Below are positions 4,036-43,784 of a stretch of DNA of 43,784 nt, in pieces. The position numbers were made by a program, and so were the translations under genes. The DNA comes from a virus (lineage: Duplodnaviria > Heunggongvirae > Uroviricota > Caudoviricetes): IMG/VR virus record IMGVR_UViG_3300042946_001496; one strand, 5' to 3'. Numbering within the stretch: position 1 is the stretch's first letter; every line of letters begins with the position of its first letter. Below the pieces are notes generated by a model, which was not told where the DNA came from, searched no databases, and saw only the letters and a list, made by a program, of their open reading frames with translations.

Positions 4036-4093
4036 TGTTTTTTCTCTTGAAAAAGAAAAGTTTTAAGCTATAATAAATAAAGCTACGATTAAT

Positions 4094-4167
4094 GCCCCTA
4101 TCGTCTAACGGTTTTAGGATAACAAACTTTCACTTTGTAGATCGGAGTTCGATTCTCCGTAGGGGTA
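4094..4167 (+). tRNA. trnE: tRNA-Glu(TTC)
   Basis: Acceptor GCCCCTA/TAGGGGT, anticodon arm ACAAA-CTTTCAC-TTTGT, T arm CGGAG-TTCGATT-CTCCG; CCA not encoded; TTGAAA-N16-TATAAT at 4047-4074. Confidence 0.92.
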
Positions 4168-4249
4168 TTTTTTAGTTTTAAATCTGAGTTTTTTACACTA
4201 ATTTAAAGCATGAAGACATGTTTTAAATGTGGTGAAACAAAAGATTCCC

Positions 4250-5723: not shown

Positions 5724-5981
5724 ATGGGTCGCCCATCTGGTAAGAATGCGGTTTCGATGAAGACTTTCCTTGGTAAGGTCGTTGAGGCTTACCACAATGG
5801 TCACAATCAGTCGTGGATTGCGGCTGAGTTGGGGGTGAGTGCAGCCGCAGTTAGTCTGCGGATCAGTTCCCTTCGTAAGAAGGGAGTTAAGCTCCCGGAG
5901 TTGGTGAGCGGTAGGGGTTCGGTTAACACCGTTGAGGATGCGAATAACATCCTCGCTGATCTCGGTTTTGACGCTGAGTGA
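5724..5981 (+). CDS. Winged-HTH protein, paralog 3
   Basis: ATG 5724 after AAGGAA; near-identical to paralog 2 from MKTFLGK onward. Confidence 0.88.
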   Translation: MGRPSGKNAVSMKTFLGKVVEAYHNGHNQSWIAAELGVSAAAVSLRISSLRKKGVKLPELVSGRGSVNTVEDANNILADLGFDAE

Positions 5982-6194
5982 GCTTAGCGTTAAGCCAACT
6001 GGTAAGGGGGAGGTAAAACTCCCCCTTACCTTTTTTTATACCTACTATCCTTAACTTAACTAAAACTTAACTAACTAAACTTAATTTATTTAACTAAAGA
6101 TTGCTTTGGTGGTACGCTGTTAATATATTATCAACCAATATATTAACACCTAAAATATATTATTGAAAATCATTTCTGGTGGTACGCTGGGAAG

Positions 6195-6362
6195 GTGTCG
6201 AGGACCGACGTCATTCATTTCTTTGAGTGCGATCGGCAAGATACAGCGGCTGGTTCGCTGGTATATTAGAAAAAGTCTATTTAATTAAAAGAACGAAGAA
6301 TAGTAGATAAAAGTAGATAAATGGGTAAGGGAGACTATAGGATGCTGTAGTCTCCCTTACTT
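6195..6362 (+). ncRNA. Candidate sRNA family A, copy 1
   Basis: ORF-less cassette; GTGTCGAG..TTGAGTG..CGGCAAGAT..CAGCGG-CTGGT-TCGCTG; long terminator TAAGGGAGACTATAG/CTGTAGTCTCCCTTA. Confidence 0.6.
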
Positions 6363-6443
6363 TTTTACTTAACACCGATCTGGTGGTACGCTGGGGGTGT
6401 GTAAGGCAACGAACAGTAAACCCCAAAATCAAGGAACATTAAC

Positions 6444-6692
6444 ATGGCTGGTCGCTCTAGTGTCGATATGAAGACTTTCCTCAGCAAGGTTGTTGAGGCT
6501 TACCACAACGGTCACAATCAATCGTGGATTGCGGCTGAGTTGGGTGTCTCCCCTGCCGCTGTTAGCCTGCGGCTTAGTGGACTGCGTAAGAAGGGTGTTA
6601 GGGTGCCGGAGTTGGTGAGCGGTAGGGGTGGAAGTAACACCGTTGAGGATGCGAATAACATCCTCGCTGATCTTGGTTTTGACGCTGAGTGA
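6444..6692 (+). CDS. Winged-HTH protein, paralog 4
   Basis: NQSWIAAELGVSPAAVSLRLSGLRKKG; AAGGAA upstream. Confidence 0.88.
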   Translation: MAGRSSVDMKTFLSKVVEAYHNGHNQSWIAAELGVSPAAVSLRLSGLRKKGVRVPELVSGRGGSNTVEDANNILADLGFDAE

Positions 6693-6901
6693 GCTTAGCG
6701 TTAAGCCAACTGGTAAGGGGGAGGTAACACTCCCCCTTACCTTTTTTTTTAACATACTAACAATTAAAATAAACATAAAATCGTACCTTGGTAGTACGCT
6801 GGACTGAAAAATAACTAACACCTATTAATTTATTAATAAAGTCCAGTTCTGGTGGTACGCTATGGGGGTGTTCTTTAATTTAGCCTCACTGGAGCCTAGT
6901 C

Positions 6902-7099
6902 ATGGCGAAGAAAGTAAGCTTGGCTGAAATGAATCGGATCATCCACGAGCGGGGATTCTTGAAGCCTGAAGAGCGGCTTTTCACAAAGCCTTGTTGTCAT
7001 TGTGGAAACTACGTGAGAGAGCGGGAGGCTCTTTGTCCAACGTGTGTCAAAGAGATCGAAAACGATCAATTCGATGATGAATTGCAAATTCAAGATTGA
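6902..7099 (+). CDS. Small zinc-ribbon protein
   Basis: CCHC...CPTC; GGAG upstream; own promoter and terminator. Confidence 0.75.
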   Translation: MAKKVSLAEMNRIIHERGFLKPEERLFTKPCCHCGNYVREREALCPTCVKEIENDQFDDELQIQD

Positions 7100-7168
7100 A
7101 CTAAGGGGGGAAGTTACTAACCCCCTTAACTTTTTTACTTAACAGCGTTTTGGTGGTACGCTGGTAGG

Positions 7169-7316
7169 GTGTCGAGCAGCAACATCTCACTTTGAGTGGG
7201 GCGGCAAGATCCAGCGGCTGGTTCGCTGGTTATATATAAGGAAAAAATTAAGTAAAAAGTAAATAGTAGATAAATGGGTAAGGGAGACTATAGGACGCTG
7301 TAGTCTCCCTTACTTT
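7169..7316 (+). ncRNA. Candidate sRNA family A, copy 2
   Basis: Same ordered motifs and same long terminator as copy 1. Confidence 0.6.
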
Positions 7317-7354
7317 TTTACTTAACACCTGTTCTGGTGGTACGCTGTGGAGCT

Positions 7355-7491
7355 GTCAACAGTAGTCGTCGCCACTGCCTGAGTTGGAATCGCTAACCAA
7401 ACGTAAGCAGCGTGGACGGCTTCCACATTACACACATTAGCGACCGTAGTGTGCGACTATAGAGCCGGATCGTAAATGGCTCGCTGTTGAC
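7355..7491 (+). ncRNA. Candidate multi-stem RNA with kissing-loop pseudoknot
   Basis: Ends pair (GTCAACAG/CTGTTGAC); TAGTCG/CGACTA; CTGC/GCAG; TTGG/CCAA; CACAC/GTGTG; GAGCC/GGCTC; loop TCGCTAA complementary to loop TTAGCGA. Confidence 0.65.
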
Positions 7492-7564
7492 TTTTTAACT
7501 AACAACAGTTTGGTGGTACGCTAGGAAGGTGTTCGATAGGCTTCTACCTTTCAAGGAGTTAAAC

Positions 7565-7690
7565 ATGGGTTTCACCATGATCATTGGATGGAATATGCCT
7601 GACGGTAGCAGCGAGGCTGCCTACATTGATGGCATTATGAAACAAATCGAGCAGCAAAGACGAAAGCGTAAAAAGCGTCGTAAAAAGTAA
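7565..7690 (+). CDS. 41-aa peptide with very basic C-terminus
   Basis: Read by hand: MGFTMIIGWNMPDGSSEAAYIDGIMKQIEQQRRKRKKRRKK*; AAGGAG upstream; fills one cassette. Confidence 0.7.
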   Translation: MGFTMIIGWNMPDGSSEAAYIDGIMKQIEQQRRKRKKRRKK

Positions 7691-7803
7691 AACTAAAGGG
7701 GGAAGTTACTAACCCCTTAACTTTTTAACTAACAACCAGTTTGGTGGTACGCTATGGTGGCGTAAGGTAACGAACAACAACCCTCCAATTAAGGAACAGC
7801 AAC

Positions 7804-8052
7804 ATGGCTGGTCGCTCTAGTGTCGATATGCGTGTTTTTCTCGCCAAGGTCGTCGAAGCCCATAAGAAGGGCATGAATCAATCGTGGATCGCCAATGAAC
7901 TTGGCGTGACTCCTGCCGCTGTTAGCCTGCGGCTTAGTGGACTGCGTAAGAAGGGTGTTAGGGTGCCGGAGTTGGTTTCTGGTCGAGGCGGTAGTAATAC
8001 CGCTGAAGACGCAAATAACATTCTGGCTGATCTCGGTTTTGACACCGAGTGA
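7804..8052 (+). CDS. Winged-HTH protein, paralog 5
   Basis: NQSWIANELGVTPAAVSLRLSGLRKKG. Confidence 0.88.
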   Translation: MAGRSSVDMRVFLAKVVEAHKKGMNQSWIANELGVTPAAVSLRLSGLRKKGVRVPELVSGRGGSNTAEDANNILADLGFDTE

Positions 8053-8141
8053 ATGCCAGATTAAAAAGTAAGTTAAGGGGGGACTAACACTCCCCCCTTA
8101 ACTCTTTTACTAACAATAAACTCTGGTGGTACGCTGATGAA

Positions 8142-8245
8142 TTGTCCGCAGCGGCTGGTCTGCTGTTAAAAGAATTATTTAAATATTTCAAAATGTATTA
8201 ATAATTCTGGACAGGTTAAAGGGGGAGGTTACTAACCCCTTAACT
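8142..8245 (+). ncRNA. Candidate sRNA family A, copy 3 (short form)
   Basis: TGTCC(8143)/GGACA(8209) enclosing CAGCGG-CTGGT-CTGCTG and AGAATTATT/AATAATTCT. Confidence 0.5.
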
Positions 8246-8336
8246 CTTTTACTAACAATAAACTCTGGTGGTACGCTGTGGTGTTGTAAGTGAACGATTG
8301 ATTAGGCTTCCCGTTCACCTTCTTTAAGGATAACAA

Positions 8337-8474
8337 ATGTATGAAATAACTAGCGTTGACACTGGTAAAACCATTGTCATGACTCGGAGCGAGGCTGAAC
8401 AAATGTTCGGCAAAAATGAGTTTAAAGAGATGCTGGCGGGAAGTTTACCGCACCTAATAGTAGTTAAACTCTGA
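8337..8474 (+). CDS. 45-aa hypothetical protein
   Basis: Read by hand: MYEITSVDTGKTIVMTRSEAEQMFGKNEFKEMLAGSLPHLIVVKL*; AAGGA upstream. Confidence 0.7.
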   Translation: MYEITSVDTGKTIVMTRSEAEQMFGKNEFKEMLAGSLPHLIVVKL

Positions 8475-8573
8475 GGTTATTAAGGGGGACTAACCGTCCC
8501 TCTTAACTCTTTAACTTAACACACGGTTTGGTGGTACGCTGTTTGTGTGCCGGACCTTAAAAAGAGGATTAAG

Positions 8574-8843
8574 ATGATTTTCACCGCACAACAAGCTAGG
8601 GATAATAGCATTCTTAAAGCCACCTTGGATAAGATTTACGAAAAGATCAAAATCGTCAGCAAAGACAAAAATGATCTTACTATTGTTTTTGGTGAAAATC
8701 CCGATTTTGAATACTGTGATGCTTATCGCAATGAAGAAGACATCAAAGAAAATCTTGAAAAGGCTGGCTATGAGGTTCGTTGGGATTACACCACTCCCCT
8801 CGGCATCCCTACACTCTATATCGATTGGCGTTTTCCTAACTAA
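8574..8843 (+). CDS. Hypothetical protein
   Basis: ATG 8574 after AGAGGA, in frame with track ORF 8547..8843. Confidence 0.75.
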   Translation: MIFTAQQARDNSILKATLDKIYEKIKIVSKDKNDLTIVFGENPDFEYCDAYRNEEDIKENLEKAGYEVRWDYTTPLGIPTLYIDWRFPN

Positions 8844-8938
8844 AGAAGGGGATTAAATATCCCTAACTTTATACTTAACGACCTGTTGGTGGTACGCTGT
8901 GGTGGTGTAAGTTAAACCCTCAAACAAGAAAGAATATC

Positions 8939-9172
8939 ATGAATAACGACTGCTGTTGGCACTCCAGCTGGAAGAAGAACCACCCGGAACCCGTTGCCGC
9001 CCCTTGCGTTTATGATCTTGATTTCATTTTCAAGGCGATGGCTAACAAAACAAAGATTACAATTCAAGGGGTCACCGGAATTATCAGTGGTATCGAAACA
9101 ACGAGTGCGGACAATGGATACAGATTGAGTTTCTGCGATAGAGCCGGTTGGGTTGTAGTCGTTGCAAAGTAA
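8939..9172 (+). CDS. Hypothetical protein, 'YDLDFIF' paralog 1
   Basis: Shares YDLDFIF(K/N)AMA...G.I(S/T)GIE with 11576..11893. Confidence 0.75.
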   Translation: MNNDCCWHSSWKKNHPEPVAAPCVYDLDFIFKAMANKTKITIQGVTGIISGIETTSADNGYRLSFCDRAGWVVVVAK

Positions 9173-41445: not shown

Positions 41446-43784
41446 ATGTCTAATTCCTATGTAGAAAATGCATCTGTTTTTGGTTTAAATTTCAAAAAAA
41501 GCGTAAAACTGGCTACGACAGAGAATGTAGTTCTCAACGGTGCTGGTTATGCTTTTGACGGTGTCGTTGCAAATGTAGGAACAAGAATTCTTGTTAAAGA
41601 CCAAGATGATCCAAAAGAAAATGGAATATATGTCGTAAGATCTGGTTTATGGACTAGGAGTGATGACGCCAACTCCTCTTTAAGATTAGTGCCCTCTACT
41701 ATTGTTTTAGTTGAAGAAGGAGATATTAATCATAATACTACTTGGAGACTAGTTACTCCTAGTCCGATAGTCGTTGGTGTTACAGAATTAAGCTTTGTTG
41801 AAATGCTTGGGGCACAAGGAACACAAGGAACACAAGGAACACAAGGAACACAAGGAACACAAGGAACACAAGGAACACAAGGAACACAAGGAACACAAGG
41901 CACTCAGGGAACCCAAGGAACACAAGGCACACAAGGAACACAAGGAACTCAAGGAACACAAGGAGCTCAAGGAACTCAGGGCATACAAGGTATTCAGGGA
42001 ACTCAAGGCACACAAGGCACACAAGGAACCCAAGGAACACAAGGAACTCAAGGAACACAAGGAGCTCAAGGAACTCAAGGTATACAAGGTATTCAGGGTG
42101 TCCAAGGCACACAAGGAACACAAGGCACTCAAGGAACACAAGGCACACAAGGAACACAAGGCACACAAGGCACACAAGGAACTCAGGGAACACAAGGAAC
42201 TCAGGGAACACAAGGAACACAAGGAACTCAAGGCATACAAGGTATTCAGGGTGTCCAAGGAACACAAGGAACTCAGGGAACACAAGGAACACAAGGCACC
42301 CAAGGAACACAAGGCACCCAAGGAACACAAGGAACTCAAGGAGCACAAGGAACACAAGGTATACAAGGCATTCAGGGTGTCCAAGGCACACAAGGAACAC
42401 AAGGCATACAAGGCATTCAGGGTGTCCAAGGAACACAAGGAACACAAGGAACACAAGGAACACAAGGAACACAAGGAACACAAGGAACACAAGGAACACA
42501 AGGAACCCAAGGAACTCAAGGAACTCAAGGCATACAAGGTATTCAGGGAACCCAAGGAACACAAGGAACACAAGGAACACAAGGAACACAAGGAACACAA
42601 GGAACACAAGGAACACAAGGAACCCAAGGAACTCAAGGAACACAAGGAACCCAAGGAACTCAAGGTATACAAGGTATTCAGGGTGTCCAAGGAACACAAG
42701 GAACACAAGGAACACAAGGAACTCAAGGAACTCAAGGAACTCAAGGAACTCAAGGAACTCAAGGAACTCAGGGGATACAAGGTATTCAGGGAACTCAAGG
42801 CACACAAGGCACACAAGGCACACAAGGAACCCAAGGAACACAAGGCACACAAGGAACTCAGGGAACACAAGGAACTCAAGGTATACAAGGTATTCAGGGT
42901 GTCCAAGGCACACAAGGAACTCAAGGAACACAAGGCACACAAGGAACTCAAGGAACTCAAGGAACTCAAGGAGCCCAAGGAACCCAAGGAACCCAAGGAA
43001 CCCAAGGAGCACAAGGAACCCAAGGAACTCAAGGTATACAAGGTATTCAGGGTGTCCAAGGAACACAAGGAACACAAGGAACACAAGGAACTCAAGGAAC
43101 TCAGGGCATACAAGGTATTCAGGGAACCCAAGGAACACAAGGAACACAAGGAACTCAAGGAACTCAAGGAACTCAAGGAACTCAAGGAACTCAGGGCATA
43201 CAAGGTATTCAGGGAACTCAAGGCACACAAGGCACACAAGGCACACAAGGCACACAAGGCACACAAGGCACACAAGGCACACAAGGAACACAAGGAACAC
43301 AAGGCACACAAGGAACACAAGGAACTCAGGGAACTCAAGGAACTCAAGGAACTCAAGGAACTCAAGGTATACAAGGTATACAGGGTGTCCAAGGAACACA
43401 AGGAACCCAAGGAACCCAAGGAACACAAGGAACACAAGGAACCCAAGGAACCCAAGGAACTCAAGGAACTCAGGGAACTCAAGGAACTCAGGGAACTCAA
43501 GGAACTCAAGGAACTCAAGGAACTCAAGGTATACAAGGTATTCAGGGTGTCCAAGGAACACAAGGAACTCAGGGAACTCAAGGAACTCAGGGAACTCAAG
43601 GAACTCAAGGCACACAAGGCACACAAGGCACACAAGGAACACAAGGAACCCAAGGAACACAAGGAACCCAAGGAACCCAAGGAAATCAAGGAACTCAGGG
43701 AACTCAAGGAACTCAAGGAACTCAAGGCATACAAGGCATTCAGGGTGTCCAAGGAACACAAGGAACCCAAGGAACCCAAGGAAC
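41446..43784 (+). CDS. Collagen-like fibre/decoration protein (partial; no stop within window)
   Basis: ATG 41446; N-terminal KSVKLATTENV...DGV...RILVKDQ...ENGIYV...WTR.DD domain typical of phage fibre/decoration proteins; then Gly-X-Gln triplets from 41809 to the window end. Confidence 0.9.
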   Translation, partial: MSNSYVENASVFGLNFKKSVKLATTENVVLNGAGYAFDGVVANVGTRILVKDQDDPKENGIYVVRSGLWTRSDDANSSLRLVPSTIVLVEEGDINHNTTWRLVTPSPIVVGVTELSFVEMLGAQGTQGTQGTQGTQGTQGTQGTQGTQGTQGTQGTQGTQGTQGTQGTQGTQGAQGTQGIQGIQGTQGTQGTQGTQGTQGTQGTQGAQGTQGIQGIQGVQGTQGTQGTQGTQGTQGTQGTQGTQGTQGTQGTQGTQGTQGTQGIQGIQGVQGTQGTQGTQGTQGTQGTQGTQGTQGTQGAQGTQGIQGIQGVQGTQGTQGIQGIQGVQGTQGTQGTQGTQGTQGTQGTQGTQGTQGTQGTQGIQGIQGTQGTQGTQGTQGTQGTQGTQGTQGTQGTQGTQGTQGTQGIQGIQGVQGTQGTQGTQGTQGTQGTQGTQGTQGTQGIQGIQGTQGTQGTQGTQGTQGTQGTQGTQGTQGTQGIQGIQGVQGTQGTQGTQGTQGTQGTQGTQGAQGTQGTQGTQGAQGTQGTQGIQGIQGVQGTQGTQGTQGTQGTQGIQGIQGTQGTQGTQGTQGTQGTQGTQGTQGIQGIQGTQGTQGTQGTQGTQGTQGTQGTQGTQGTQGTQGTQGTQGTQGTQGTQGTQGIQGIQGVQGTQGTQGTQGTQGTQGTQGTQGTQGTQGTQGTQGTQGTQGTQGTQGIQGIQGVQGTQGTQGTQGTQGTQGTQGTQGTQGTQGTQGTQGTQGTQGTQGNQGTQGTQGTQGTQGIQGIQGVQGTQGTQGTQG
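41809..43784 (+). repeat. 9-bp-period collagen-coding repeat (about 219 triplets)
   Basis: GGA ACA CAA and variants; X = T, I, V, A, rarely N. Confidence 0.95.

Follow-up and report, generated by a model that had tools for sequence, protein, structure and literature searches.

A conserved four-way-junction RNA of about 140 nucleotides fills a promoter cassette of a freshwater phage and belongs to an uncatalogued phage RNA family

The DNA analysed here (the window; all 43,784 nucleotides of IMG/VR record IMGVR_UViG_3300042946_001496) comes from a freshwater phage of about 141 kb, the longest contig with the neighbouring gene being 141,547 bases, and its sequence is present in many lake-water metagenome runs. 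The window encodes three tRNA genes, a SNF2-type helicase and a virion protein assigned to PHROG 1645. One virion protein shares 33-38% identity with proteins from T4-like cyanophages, and no T4 core family was found among 10 large open reading frames (ORFs) of the window. A collagen triple-helix-repeat ORF (41446-43782, + strand; Pfam Collagen, E 3.7e-105) remains open where the window ends. In an array of small genes, the promoter word TGGTGGTACGCT is present in 33 copies between 1.9 and 12.3 kb (32 on the + strand), with 0.03 copies expected by chance. Aligned copies of the repeated unit comprise a G-rich stem-loop, a T-run leading into TTTACT, an extended -10 element (TGgTACGCT) and a block of the type GTGGTGGTGT; in most of the 33 units, a GGGGG/CCCCC hairpin with a T-run comes before the promoter word. 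The G+C content of the promoter-cassette array (4-12 kb) is 43-45%, compared with 28-35%, or around 30%, elsewhere in the window.

One cassette of this array, at 7355-7491 on the + strand, contains no gene, as stop codons occur in all three + frames and its sole ATG opens 4 codons. The original prediction had described these 137 nucleotides as an ORF-less RNA that fills one cassette exactly, and the flanks agree, with the promoter word at 7335-7346 on one side and the next T-run and promoter starting at 7492 on the other. Judging from these signals, the transcript would start at about 7352-7355 and end at the U-run of 7492-7496 (Table 1). Its closing helix, P1, together with the U-run occupies the slot taken in other units by the usual GGGGG/CCCCC stem-loop. 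Two more cassettes, 7163-7320 and 6189-6380, are also ORF-less; they have sequence in common and share the same long terminator hairpin (GGGTAAGGGAGACTATAGG...), and appear to be a second small RNA family.

The array resembles the PeSLs of T4-type phages, composite cassettes of a terminator stem-loop and a promoter (Arbiol et al. 2010, PMC2839356; Comeau et al. 2014, PMC4122927). These papers give TTTACW-N17-TAYWAT for PeSL promoters in the T4/PST pair (PMC4122927), a motif type that the window promoter matches, and describe PeSLs as flanking ORFans (PMC2839356, PMC4122927), and a term search of the two papers found no ORF-less RNA cassette. As in PeSLs, a terminator stem-loop, a T-run and a sigma-70-like promoter (TTTACT ... 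TACGCT) recur, here 33 times around small genes, and cassette order varies between close relatives. However, a PeSL is the frame and not the content of a cassette, and here the RNA's own closing helix stands in for the stem-loop. The cassette array of a related contig also contains, on the opposite strand (L028:2670-3374, - strand), a gene for an HNH endonuclease of 235 aa (PHROG 10822, E 2.6e-45), and the same gene is found in the cassette arrays of L030 and L031.

Table 1. Features of the RNA cassette and its flanking promoters in the window. Structural elements are those of the predicted fold; MFE, minimum free energy.
Feature	Position	Strand	Details
Cassette promoter	7314-7356	+	T-run; -35-like TTTACT, 7317-7322; extended -10 TGgTACGCT, 7338-7346; block GTGGAGCTGT, 7347-7356
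P1, 5′ strand GUCAACAGU	7355-7363	+	pairs with 7483-7491; pairing probability 0.94-1.0
P2, 5′ strand AGUCGUC	7364-7370	+	partner GACGGCU, 7415-7421; pairing probability 0.78-0.92
P3, variable arm inside P2	7373-7412	+	MFE; C7373-G7412, CUGC/GCAG (7375-7378 / 7407-7410)
P3 distal stem (holds TTGG/CCAA)	~7383-7402	+	loop AAUCGCUAA, 7388-7396
P3 loop word UCGCUAA	7390-7396	+	complementary to 7437-7443; retained as UCGCUA in L014
Junction word CGUGG (7411-7415), continuing into P2 3′ strand (7415-7421)	7411-7421	+	family-invariant
P4 hairpin CACAUUAC/GUAGUGUG	7424-7431 / 7446-7453	+	pairing probability 0.9
P4 outer pairs U7422-G7456, U7423-C7455	7422-7456	+	MFE extension
P4 loop, 14 nt, contains UUAGCGA (7437-7443)	7432-7445	+	MFE
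J4/5 CUAUA, then G	7457-7461	+	family consensus uAUAG
P5 hairpin GAGCCG (7462-7467) / UGGCUC (7477-7482)	7462-7482	+	loop GAUCGUAAA; pairing probability 0.85-1.0
P1, 3′ strand GCUGUUGAC (7483-7491), then UUUUU (7492-7496)	7483-7497	+	putative intrinsic terminator, read from the sequence
Promoter of the next cassette	7497-7522	+	serves the 41-aa ORF cassette; ORF 7565-7690

The 137-nt element has an MFE of -48.6 kcal/mol (z = -3.0), and one of 200 shuffled sequences folded equally well. The words on which the original prediction had built its secondary structure are all in place: GTCAACAG (7355-7362) and CTGTTGAC (7484-7491) at the closing ends, the loop words TCGCTAA (7390-7396) and TTAGCGA (7437-7443), and the inner pairs TAGTCG (7363) and CGACTA (7454), CTGC (7375) and GCAG (7407), TTGG (7384) and CCAA (7397), CACAC (7431) and GTGTG (7449), and GAGCC (7462) and GGCTC (7478). 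Four of the six stems proposed from these words were retained, but TAGTCG/CGACTA and CACAC/GTGTG have pairing probabilities below 0.01. As drawn, that stem set reaches -32 kcal/mol, or -38.9 kcal/mol with a GUGGA/UCCAC hairpin added, compared with -48.6 kcal/mol for the MFE structure, and homologues favour other partners, namely AGTCGTC/GACGGCT and CACATTAC/GTAGTGTG. Thermodynamics and covariation together show a modelled fold that is a four-way junction of P1, P2 leading into P3, P4, and P5 (Table 1), in which P5 directly abuts the 3′ strand of P1 with zero linker.

Close relatives were found in two ways. An exact look-up of the flanking small proteins yielded six contigs from different samples that carry a 100%-identical RNA while their flanks differ by 0.3-12%, and of the sequencing runs X3, X6, X12 and X17 the first two cover the RNA and contain no variant within it. 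No RNA runs are listed among the sequencing runs that contain the window sequence. When metagenomes were scanned for pairs of promoter words spaced 150-180 nt apart, a copy with 84% identity was found on contig L014, a sequence type present in four contigs (L014, L023, L026 and L027). The L014 copy folds independently into the same architecture (z = -4.9), and its differences from the window copy are concentrated in distal P3 and the P4-P5 junction. Several of the differences preserve pairing: in P2 the U7369-A7416 pair becomes C-G by a double change, in P4 a G.U pair becomes G-C, and the distal stem of P3 is swapped for GUUGU/ACAAC around the same UCGCU loop.

The surroundings of the RNA are less constant. 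On L014 (3840-5100) the cassette follows a wHTH gene and precedes an 85-aa gene, whereas in the window it precedes the 41-aa gene. L014 does encode a homologue of the neighbouring 41-aa protein of the window, and a search of a protein index returned no diverged homologue of that protein. In one lake run, position 7513 is joined to 7695, so that the 41-aa cassette is absent. Since the neighbouring cassettes differ in L014 and in this run, the RNA moves as a module, and the varying cassette order among close relatives points to recombination between the repeated units.

Beyond these relatives, the RNA is shown to be a member of an uncatalogued family spread among dozens of uncultured freshwater phages. 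We built a covariance model (R1) from the window copy and the 84%-identical L014 type as seeds, and gathered copies with two IMG/VR motif scans, which returned 16 and 41 contigs, and then with the model itself. Model R1 recognizes 48 copies, 39 of them distinct, in metagenome and IMG/VR phage contigs, and 44 IMG/VR contigs carry a model-supported copy. A 49th hit is a spurious reverse-strand match in the window. The window copy, as a seed, scores 184 bits, and independent members score 28-61 bits (E 1e-4 to 5e-13). Carriers among the IMG/VR contigs are 11-244 kb long, include phages of 150-240 kb judged complete, and lack the promoter word of the window; among the carriers are phages without detectable kinship to the window phage. 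Two large proteins of the window had no match in the five IMG/VR host phages searched, and a Pfam search for Gp23 returned nothing in five such phages, empty answers that count as weak evidence.

The family consensus reads CAGUAACCGyy, P3, CGUGGgCGGUUUCCA, P4, gGnuuAUAG, P5 with loop GGNNCGUAAA, and CGCUGG. The window copy is a full-length match to R1 with P1, P2, P4 and P5, and contains all of the conserved words: CAGUA..CG, CGUGG(G/A)CGG(Y)U(U)CCA, uAUAG, the P5 loop GGNNCGUAAA and CGCUG. The prediction of a discrete, compact, structured non-coding RNA is supported by the same fold in independent homologues and by covariation in the 39-sequence family. In a 14-row alignment, 94% of the cells in modelled pairs can pair, compared with 77.5% in shuffles, with double changes at 22 of 33 pairs; in a 49-row alignment (40 distinct rows, one of them the spurious reverse-strand match) the figure is 92.0%, compared with 77.6% in shuffles and 28-46% in slid controls, with double changes at 23 of 33 pairs, and because the alignments (A4, A5) were fitted to model R1 these counts flatter the structure, with invariant flanking words anchoring the helices. 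Distant members fold into the same four arms by MFE alone.

Variation is unevenly distributed over the structure. The outer, distal pairs of P1 show double changes across the family, and the junction-side pairs are invariant, including a U.G pair that is conserved in 39 of 40 rows and therefore identifies the + strand as the RNA strand. P2 cells are 99.6% paired across the family, with AU/GC and GC/UA exchanges, and P4 has double changes at all six modelled pairs. In P3, CUGC/GCAG is replaced by CUGG/CCAG in L026 and L028. The P5 stem covaries (AU/GC, CG/UA/AU) around a near-invariant CGUAAA in the loop. The distant copies in related arrays (L026 5833-6016, L028 491-670, and L031 544-703 and 993-1147) keep a hairpin with the loop GGAUCGUAAAU on the covarying stems GAGCC/GGCUC, GAACC/GGUUC and GGGAC/GUCCC. 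The word CGUGG(G/A)CGG(C/U)U is near-invariant among the 39 distinct sequences. Conservation in the family thus centres on the P5 loop GGNNCGUAAA and on three words of the junction, CGUGG, UUCCA and uAUAG; the P3 and P4 arms are specific to individual lineages.

None of the catalogues searched contains this family. With Rfam 15 at the gathering threshold, the whole window matched 2 tRNAs only, and lowering the cutoff to E up to 10 over window 7000-7800 gave noise only, none of it on the element. The Infernal search proposed at the outset therefore assigns the element to no Rfam family, and the early statement that it has no hammerhead, HDV-like or pistol core agrees with the lack of an Rfam match on the element at any threshold tried. 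Ten IMG/VR loci searched at the gathering threshold gave tRNAs, one Pistol ribozyme and one abiF RNA, none on the RNA family, and four typical members had no match at E up to 1. BLAST against 50,697 phage records found no match for window 6000-9000, for window 6800-8100 or for a typical member, and a pattern scan of viral contigs with TTAGCGACCG...CGGATCGTAAAT found none either. A pattern scan of genome contigs gave a single match, in a Terriglobales MAG, which we discarded as chance. We also considered group II intron domain 5, the SAM-I and lysine riboswitches, Y RNA, 6S RNA and RNase P RNA, and dropped them on the misfit of the conserved words and the lack of an Rfam match.

Family members lie near tRNA genes. 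The fetched DNA contains tRNA genes at 29 of the 48 loci, and all of these genes (123 of 123) are on the strand of the RNA. In five loci the nearest tRNA gene is 3-83 nt away; in the window it is a tRNA-Glu gene (4093-4168) on the same strand, 3.2 kb off. On L051, which has two tandem copies, the RNA starts 8 nt past a tRNA-like 3′ end, identified by eye from a T-arm-like word. On L043 and L037, it ends a series of closed-end units with NAAUACAA between them, where an ACAAUACAA spacer is seen. Upstream of the family member on these two contigs (L043:6260-6671, - strand, and L037:3528-3870) are two more closed-end, ORF-less units of about 73 and 147 nt, each preceded by NAAUACAA; the first follows a TTGACA-N18-TAATAC promoter, and both have the look of further small RNA genes in a string. 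The Pistol ribozyme (RF02679; L043:3402-3464, - strand; 53.7 bits, gathering 34.5) lies among the tRNA genes of a 153-kb carrier, and the abiF RNA (RF03085; L045:6897-6933, + strand; 41.7 bits, gathering 37) lies in another.

The order of signals in the IMG/VR phages matches that of the window: a promoter, the RNA, P1 with a U-run, and the next promoter. Several members have TATAAT-ACAA-CCAG upstream, and many have a T-run and then TTGACA downstream. In several members an ORF begins 5-30 nt past the RNA, which leaves room for a role in cis. The conserved neighbours in these phages are small proteins, and their Pfam and PHROGs matches are to families of unknown function only.

A further claim of the original prediction was a 7-bp pairing between two loops. 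The complement exists, and also lies between hairpin loops of the corrected fold (UCGCUAA/UUAGCGA, 7 nt; duplex -7.5 kcal/mol), and 7 of 300 shuffles reach 7 bp, but it is not a family-wide feature and has no covariation. The nearest homologue retains 6 bp of it, and in the other members complementarity between the P3 and P4 loops is no higher than in shuffles. We rejected P3-P4 loop complementarity as a family trait, as only the window copy stands out. Because the pairing is confined to the window lineage and its nearest relative, without covariation, it is not the defining tertiary contact of the RNA. We regard it as a lineage trait, possibly a clamp or a dimer contact.

T4 RNA C and RNA D are small stable RNAs of the T4 tRNA cluster, and such RNAs have been known since the 1970s. 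To our knowledge, no small stable RNA beside phage tRNA genes has a known function. T4 rnaC (species 1 RNA, NC_000866 70908-71046) is 139 nt long and lies beside tRNA-Arg; in its fold, a closing stem is followed by a long arm, then a hairpin, and last a T arm directly against the 3′ strand. The window RNA shares with it a length of about 140 nt, paired ends, a four-way-junction layout with the third hairpin abutting the 3′ strand of the closing stem, and a position near phage tRNA genes on their strand. The loops of arms 1 and 2 are complementary in both, over 6 nt in T4 (UUGACG/CGUCAA) and 7 nt in the window; because 86 of 500 shuffles reach 6 nt somewhere in the arms, the T4 complement alone is weak evidence. 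The two RNAs differ in that T4 has a canonical T arm, GGUUCGAAUCC, in place of the P5 loop GGAUCGUAAAU of the window and the 9-11-nt loop GGNNCGUAAA of the family, and in that the window copy has its own promoter and U-run and does not lie inside a tRNA precursor. The T4 RNAs are classed as late (PMC9697503), whereas the window copy bears the promoter word repeated through the small-gene array. Model R1 with filters off gave no match on rnaC or rnaD in the T4 tRNA region, the best hit being elsewhere (7.4 bits, E 0.27), and the two RNAs are therefore alike in layout only. What T4 RNA C does is not known (PMC3014915, PMC9697503), so that the analogy carries no mechanism.

The RNA resembles a tRNA in the order of its helices around the junction, in the lack of a linker between P5 and the 3′ strand of P1, and in its association with tRNA genes. 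The missing linker makes a coaxial P1-P5 minihelix possible. Unlike a tRNA, the window RNA is twice as long, has no P1-P2 linker, and lacks an anticodon loop, the T-loop consensus and CCA; the tRNA models of ARAGORN and Rfam (RF00005) do not match the element. The phi29-type pRNA offers another parallel: a phage RNA of about 120-170 nt, early and promoter-driven, in which several helices meet at a junction and two loops are complementary to each other. The pRNA loops covary across their family and pair between molecules, whereas the complement here is confined to one lineage; the phage group and the genome context also differ, and Rfam gives no match.

The gene-free stretch of 137 bases is a genuine folded RNA gene, conserved and set in its own cassette, and its context speaks for a stable RNA acting in trans rather than for a ribozyme or a riboswitch. 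We propose, with a probability of roughly 0.5, that 7355-7491 (+ strand) is a stand-alone, self-terminating gene whose product, a stable RNA about 140 nt long, binds a protein in trans and serves as a decoy, sponge or scaffold, in the manner of T4 RNA C. The RNA would be transcribed from its own copy of the repeated sigma-70-like promoter and would probably be terminated by the closing helix P1 and the U-run, giving a molecule with paired ends that is presumably stable. Its strands follow tRNA topology, with P1 in the place of the acceptor stem, P2-P3 as a long variable arm, P4 as a variable hairpin, and P5 abutting the 3′ strand of P1 as the T arm does. The conservation pattern points to a defined binding surface, and the conserved junction and P5 loop would form a working surface for a protein of the host or the phage, most probably a protein that acts on tRNA-shaped RNA. 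In the window lineage, the UCGCUAA-UUAGCGA pairing could clamp the P3 and P4 arms together or join two molecules. The mode of action would be that of T4 RNA C, without detectable homology between the two. On L026 (5974-6122), directly after the full member at 5833-6016, the 3′ module occurs three times in perfect tandem with a period of 49, each repeat with the P5 hairpin and its loop GGAUCGUAAAU followed by GCUGG and a tail. This triplication fits a protein-binding hairpin, a hint that proves nothing.

Several other readings account for parts of the same evidence. The RNA could be a cis-acting, riboswitch-like regulator, in which a ligand or factor bound at the junction stabilizes P1, so that transcription stops at P1 and the U-run, ahead of the downstream gene. 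Conserved junction nucleotides between variable arms are aptamer-like, the U-run follows P1 immediately, several IMG/VR members have a Shine-Dalgarno sequence and an ATG within 5-30 nt, and the conserved CGUGGGCGGUUUCCAC, as read from the sequence, could form a local hairpin that excludes P2 and P4. We nevertheless consider this reading unlikely, as a full promoter (the TGGTGGTACGCT unit or a TTGACA word) intervenes before the next gene in the window and many IMG/VR members, the genes immediately downstream come from different families with no one consistent family among them, some copies are in tandem or directly after a tRNA gene, and there is no separate expression platform. About as unlikely is an RNA that base-pairs or self-associates, with the P3 and P4 loops pairing with a target RNA or with a second molecule to form dimers or rings, as phi29 pRNA does. 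Two 7-nt complementary words of this stability, matched by 7 of 300 shuffles, would suit such a role in the window copy, and both words are unchanged in the 84%-identical homologue although the stem of one has been replaced; being invariant, they also provide no covariation. However, the complement is absent from other family members, family-wide conservation lies in the junction and P5 and not in these loops, and antisense targets of the P4 and P5 loops in the 43.8-kb window do not exceed chance.

Catalysis is less probable still. A self-cleaving ribozyme or a processing signal within polycistronic tRNA and small-RNA precursors would explain a four-way junction with invariant unpaired nucleotides, the repeated NAAUACAA word that separates units in IMG/VR phages, and the Pistol ribozyme in the same tRNA region of the host phage L043. 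Against this, Rfam has no match to hammerhead, HDV-like, pistol, twister, twister-sister, hatchet or hairpin ribozymes in window 7000-7800 at E<=10 or in four members at E<=1, and the window unit needs no processing because it has its own promoter and U-run. The least probable reading, and one already disfavoured, is that the element has no function and is a spacer, a decayed cassette or an oversized terminator of the promoter-terminator array. The element does take the place of the stem-loop in a promoter-terminator unit, and other cassettes of the array are likewise ORF-less, but the RNA is conserved with compensatory changes in 39 distinct copies, including those in phages without the array promoter word, and it is identical in six contigs despite the flank divergence of 0.3-12%.

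Returning to a trans-acting RNA that binds a protein, we offer one more specific version as a tentative and rather doubtful speculation. The family might be a new class of non-decoding RNAs with tRNA topology that are expressed by large lake phages, in the window phage from the promoter repeated along its small-gene array. Their invariant junction and P5 loop would imitate the surface of a host RNA and titrate a host factor directed at tRNA or rRNA, such as an anticodon nuclease or some other defence enzyme that targets RNA. If so, it would represent RNA-based counter-defence and the first testable function for molecules of the T4 RNA C type. The family is new to Rfam and combines 39 distinct sequences, strong covariation, invariant junction and loop words and a T4 RNA C-like layout, and a partner or phenotype for any of its members would bear on the long-open role of such phage RNAs. 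As a movable one-gene cassette with its own promoter, the RNA would be easy to delete, express or pull down.

The P5 loop has one further resemblance. The loop and the sequence after it (window 7466-7491; CGGAUCGUAAA..GCUC.CUGUUG) resemble the 3′ strand of helix 16 of Firmicutes 16S rRNA, and the variant loop GGGCGUAAA is identical to a universal word of 16S rRNA at around position 570. When the loop word of P5 was searched in the literature, the hits were 16S rRNA sequences only. The structural context differs, and the resemblance is probably a coincidence.
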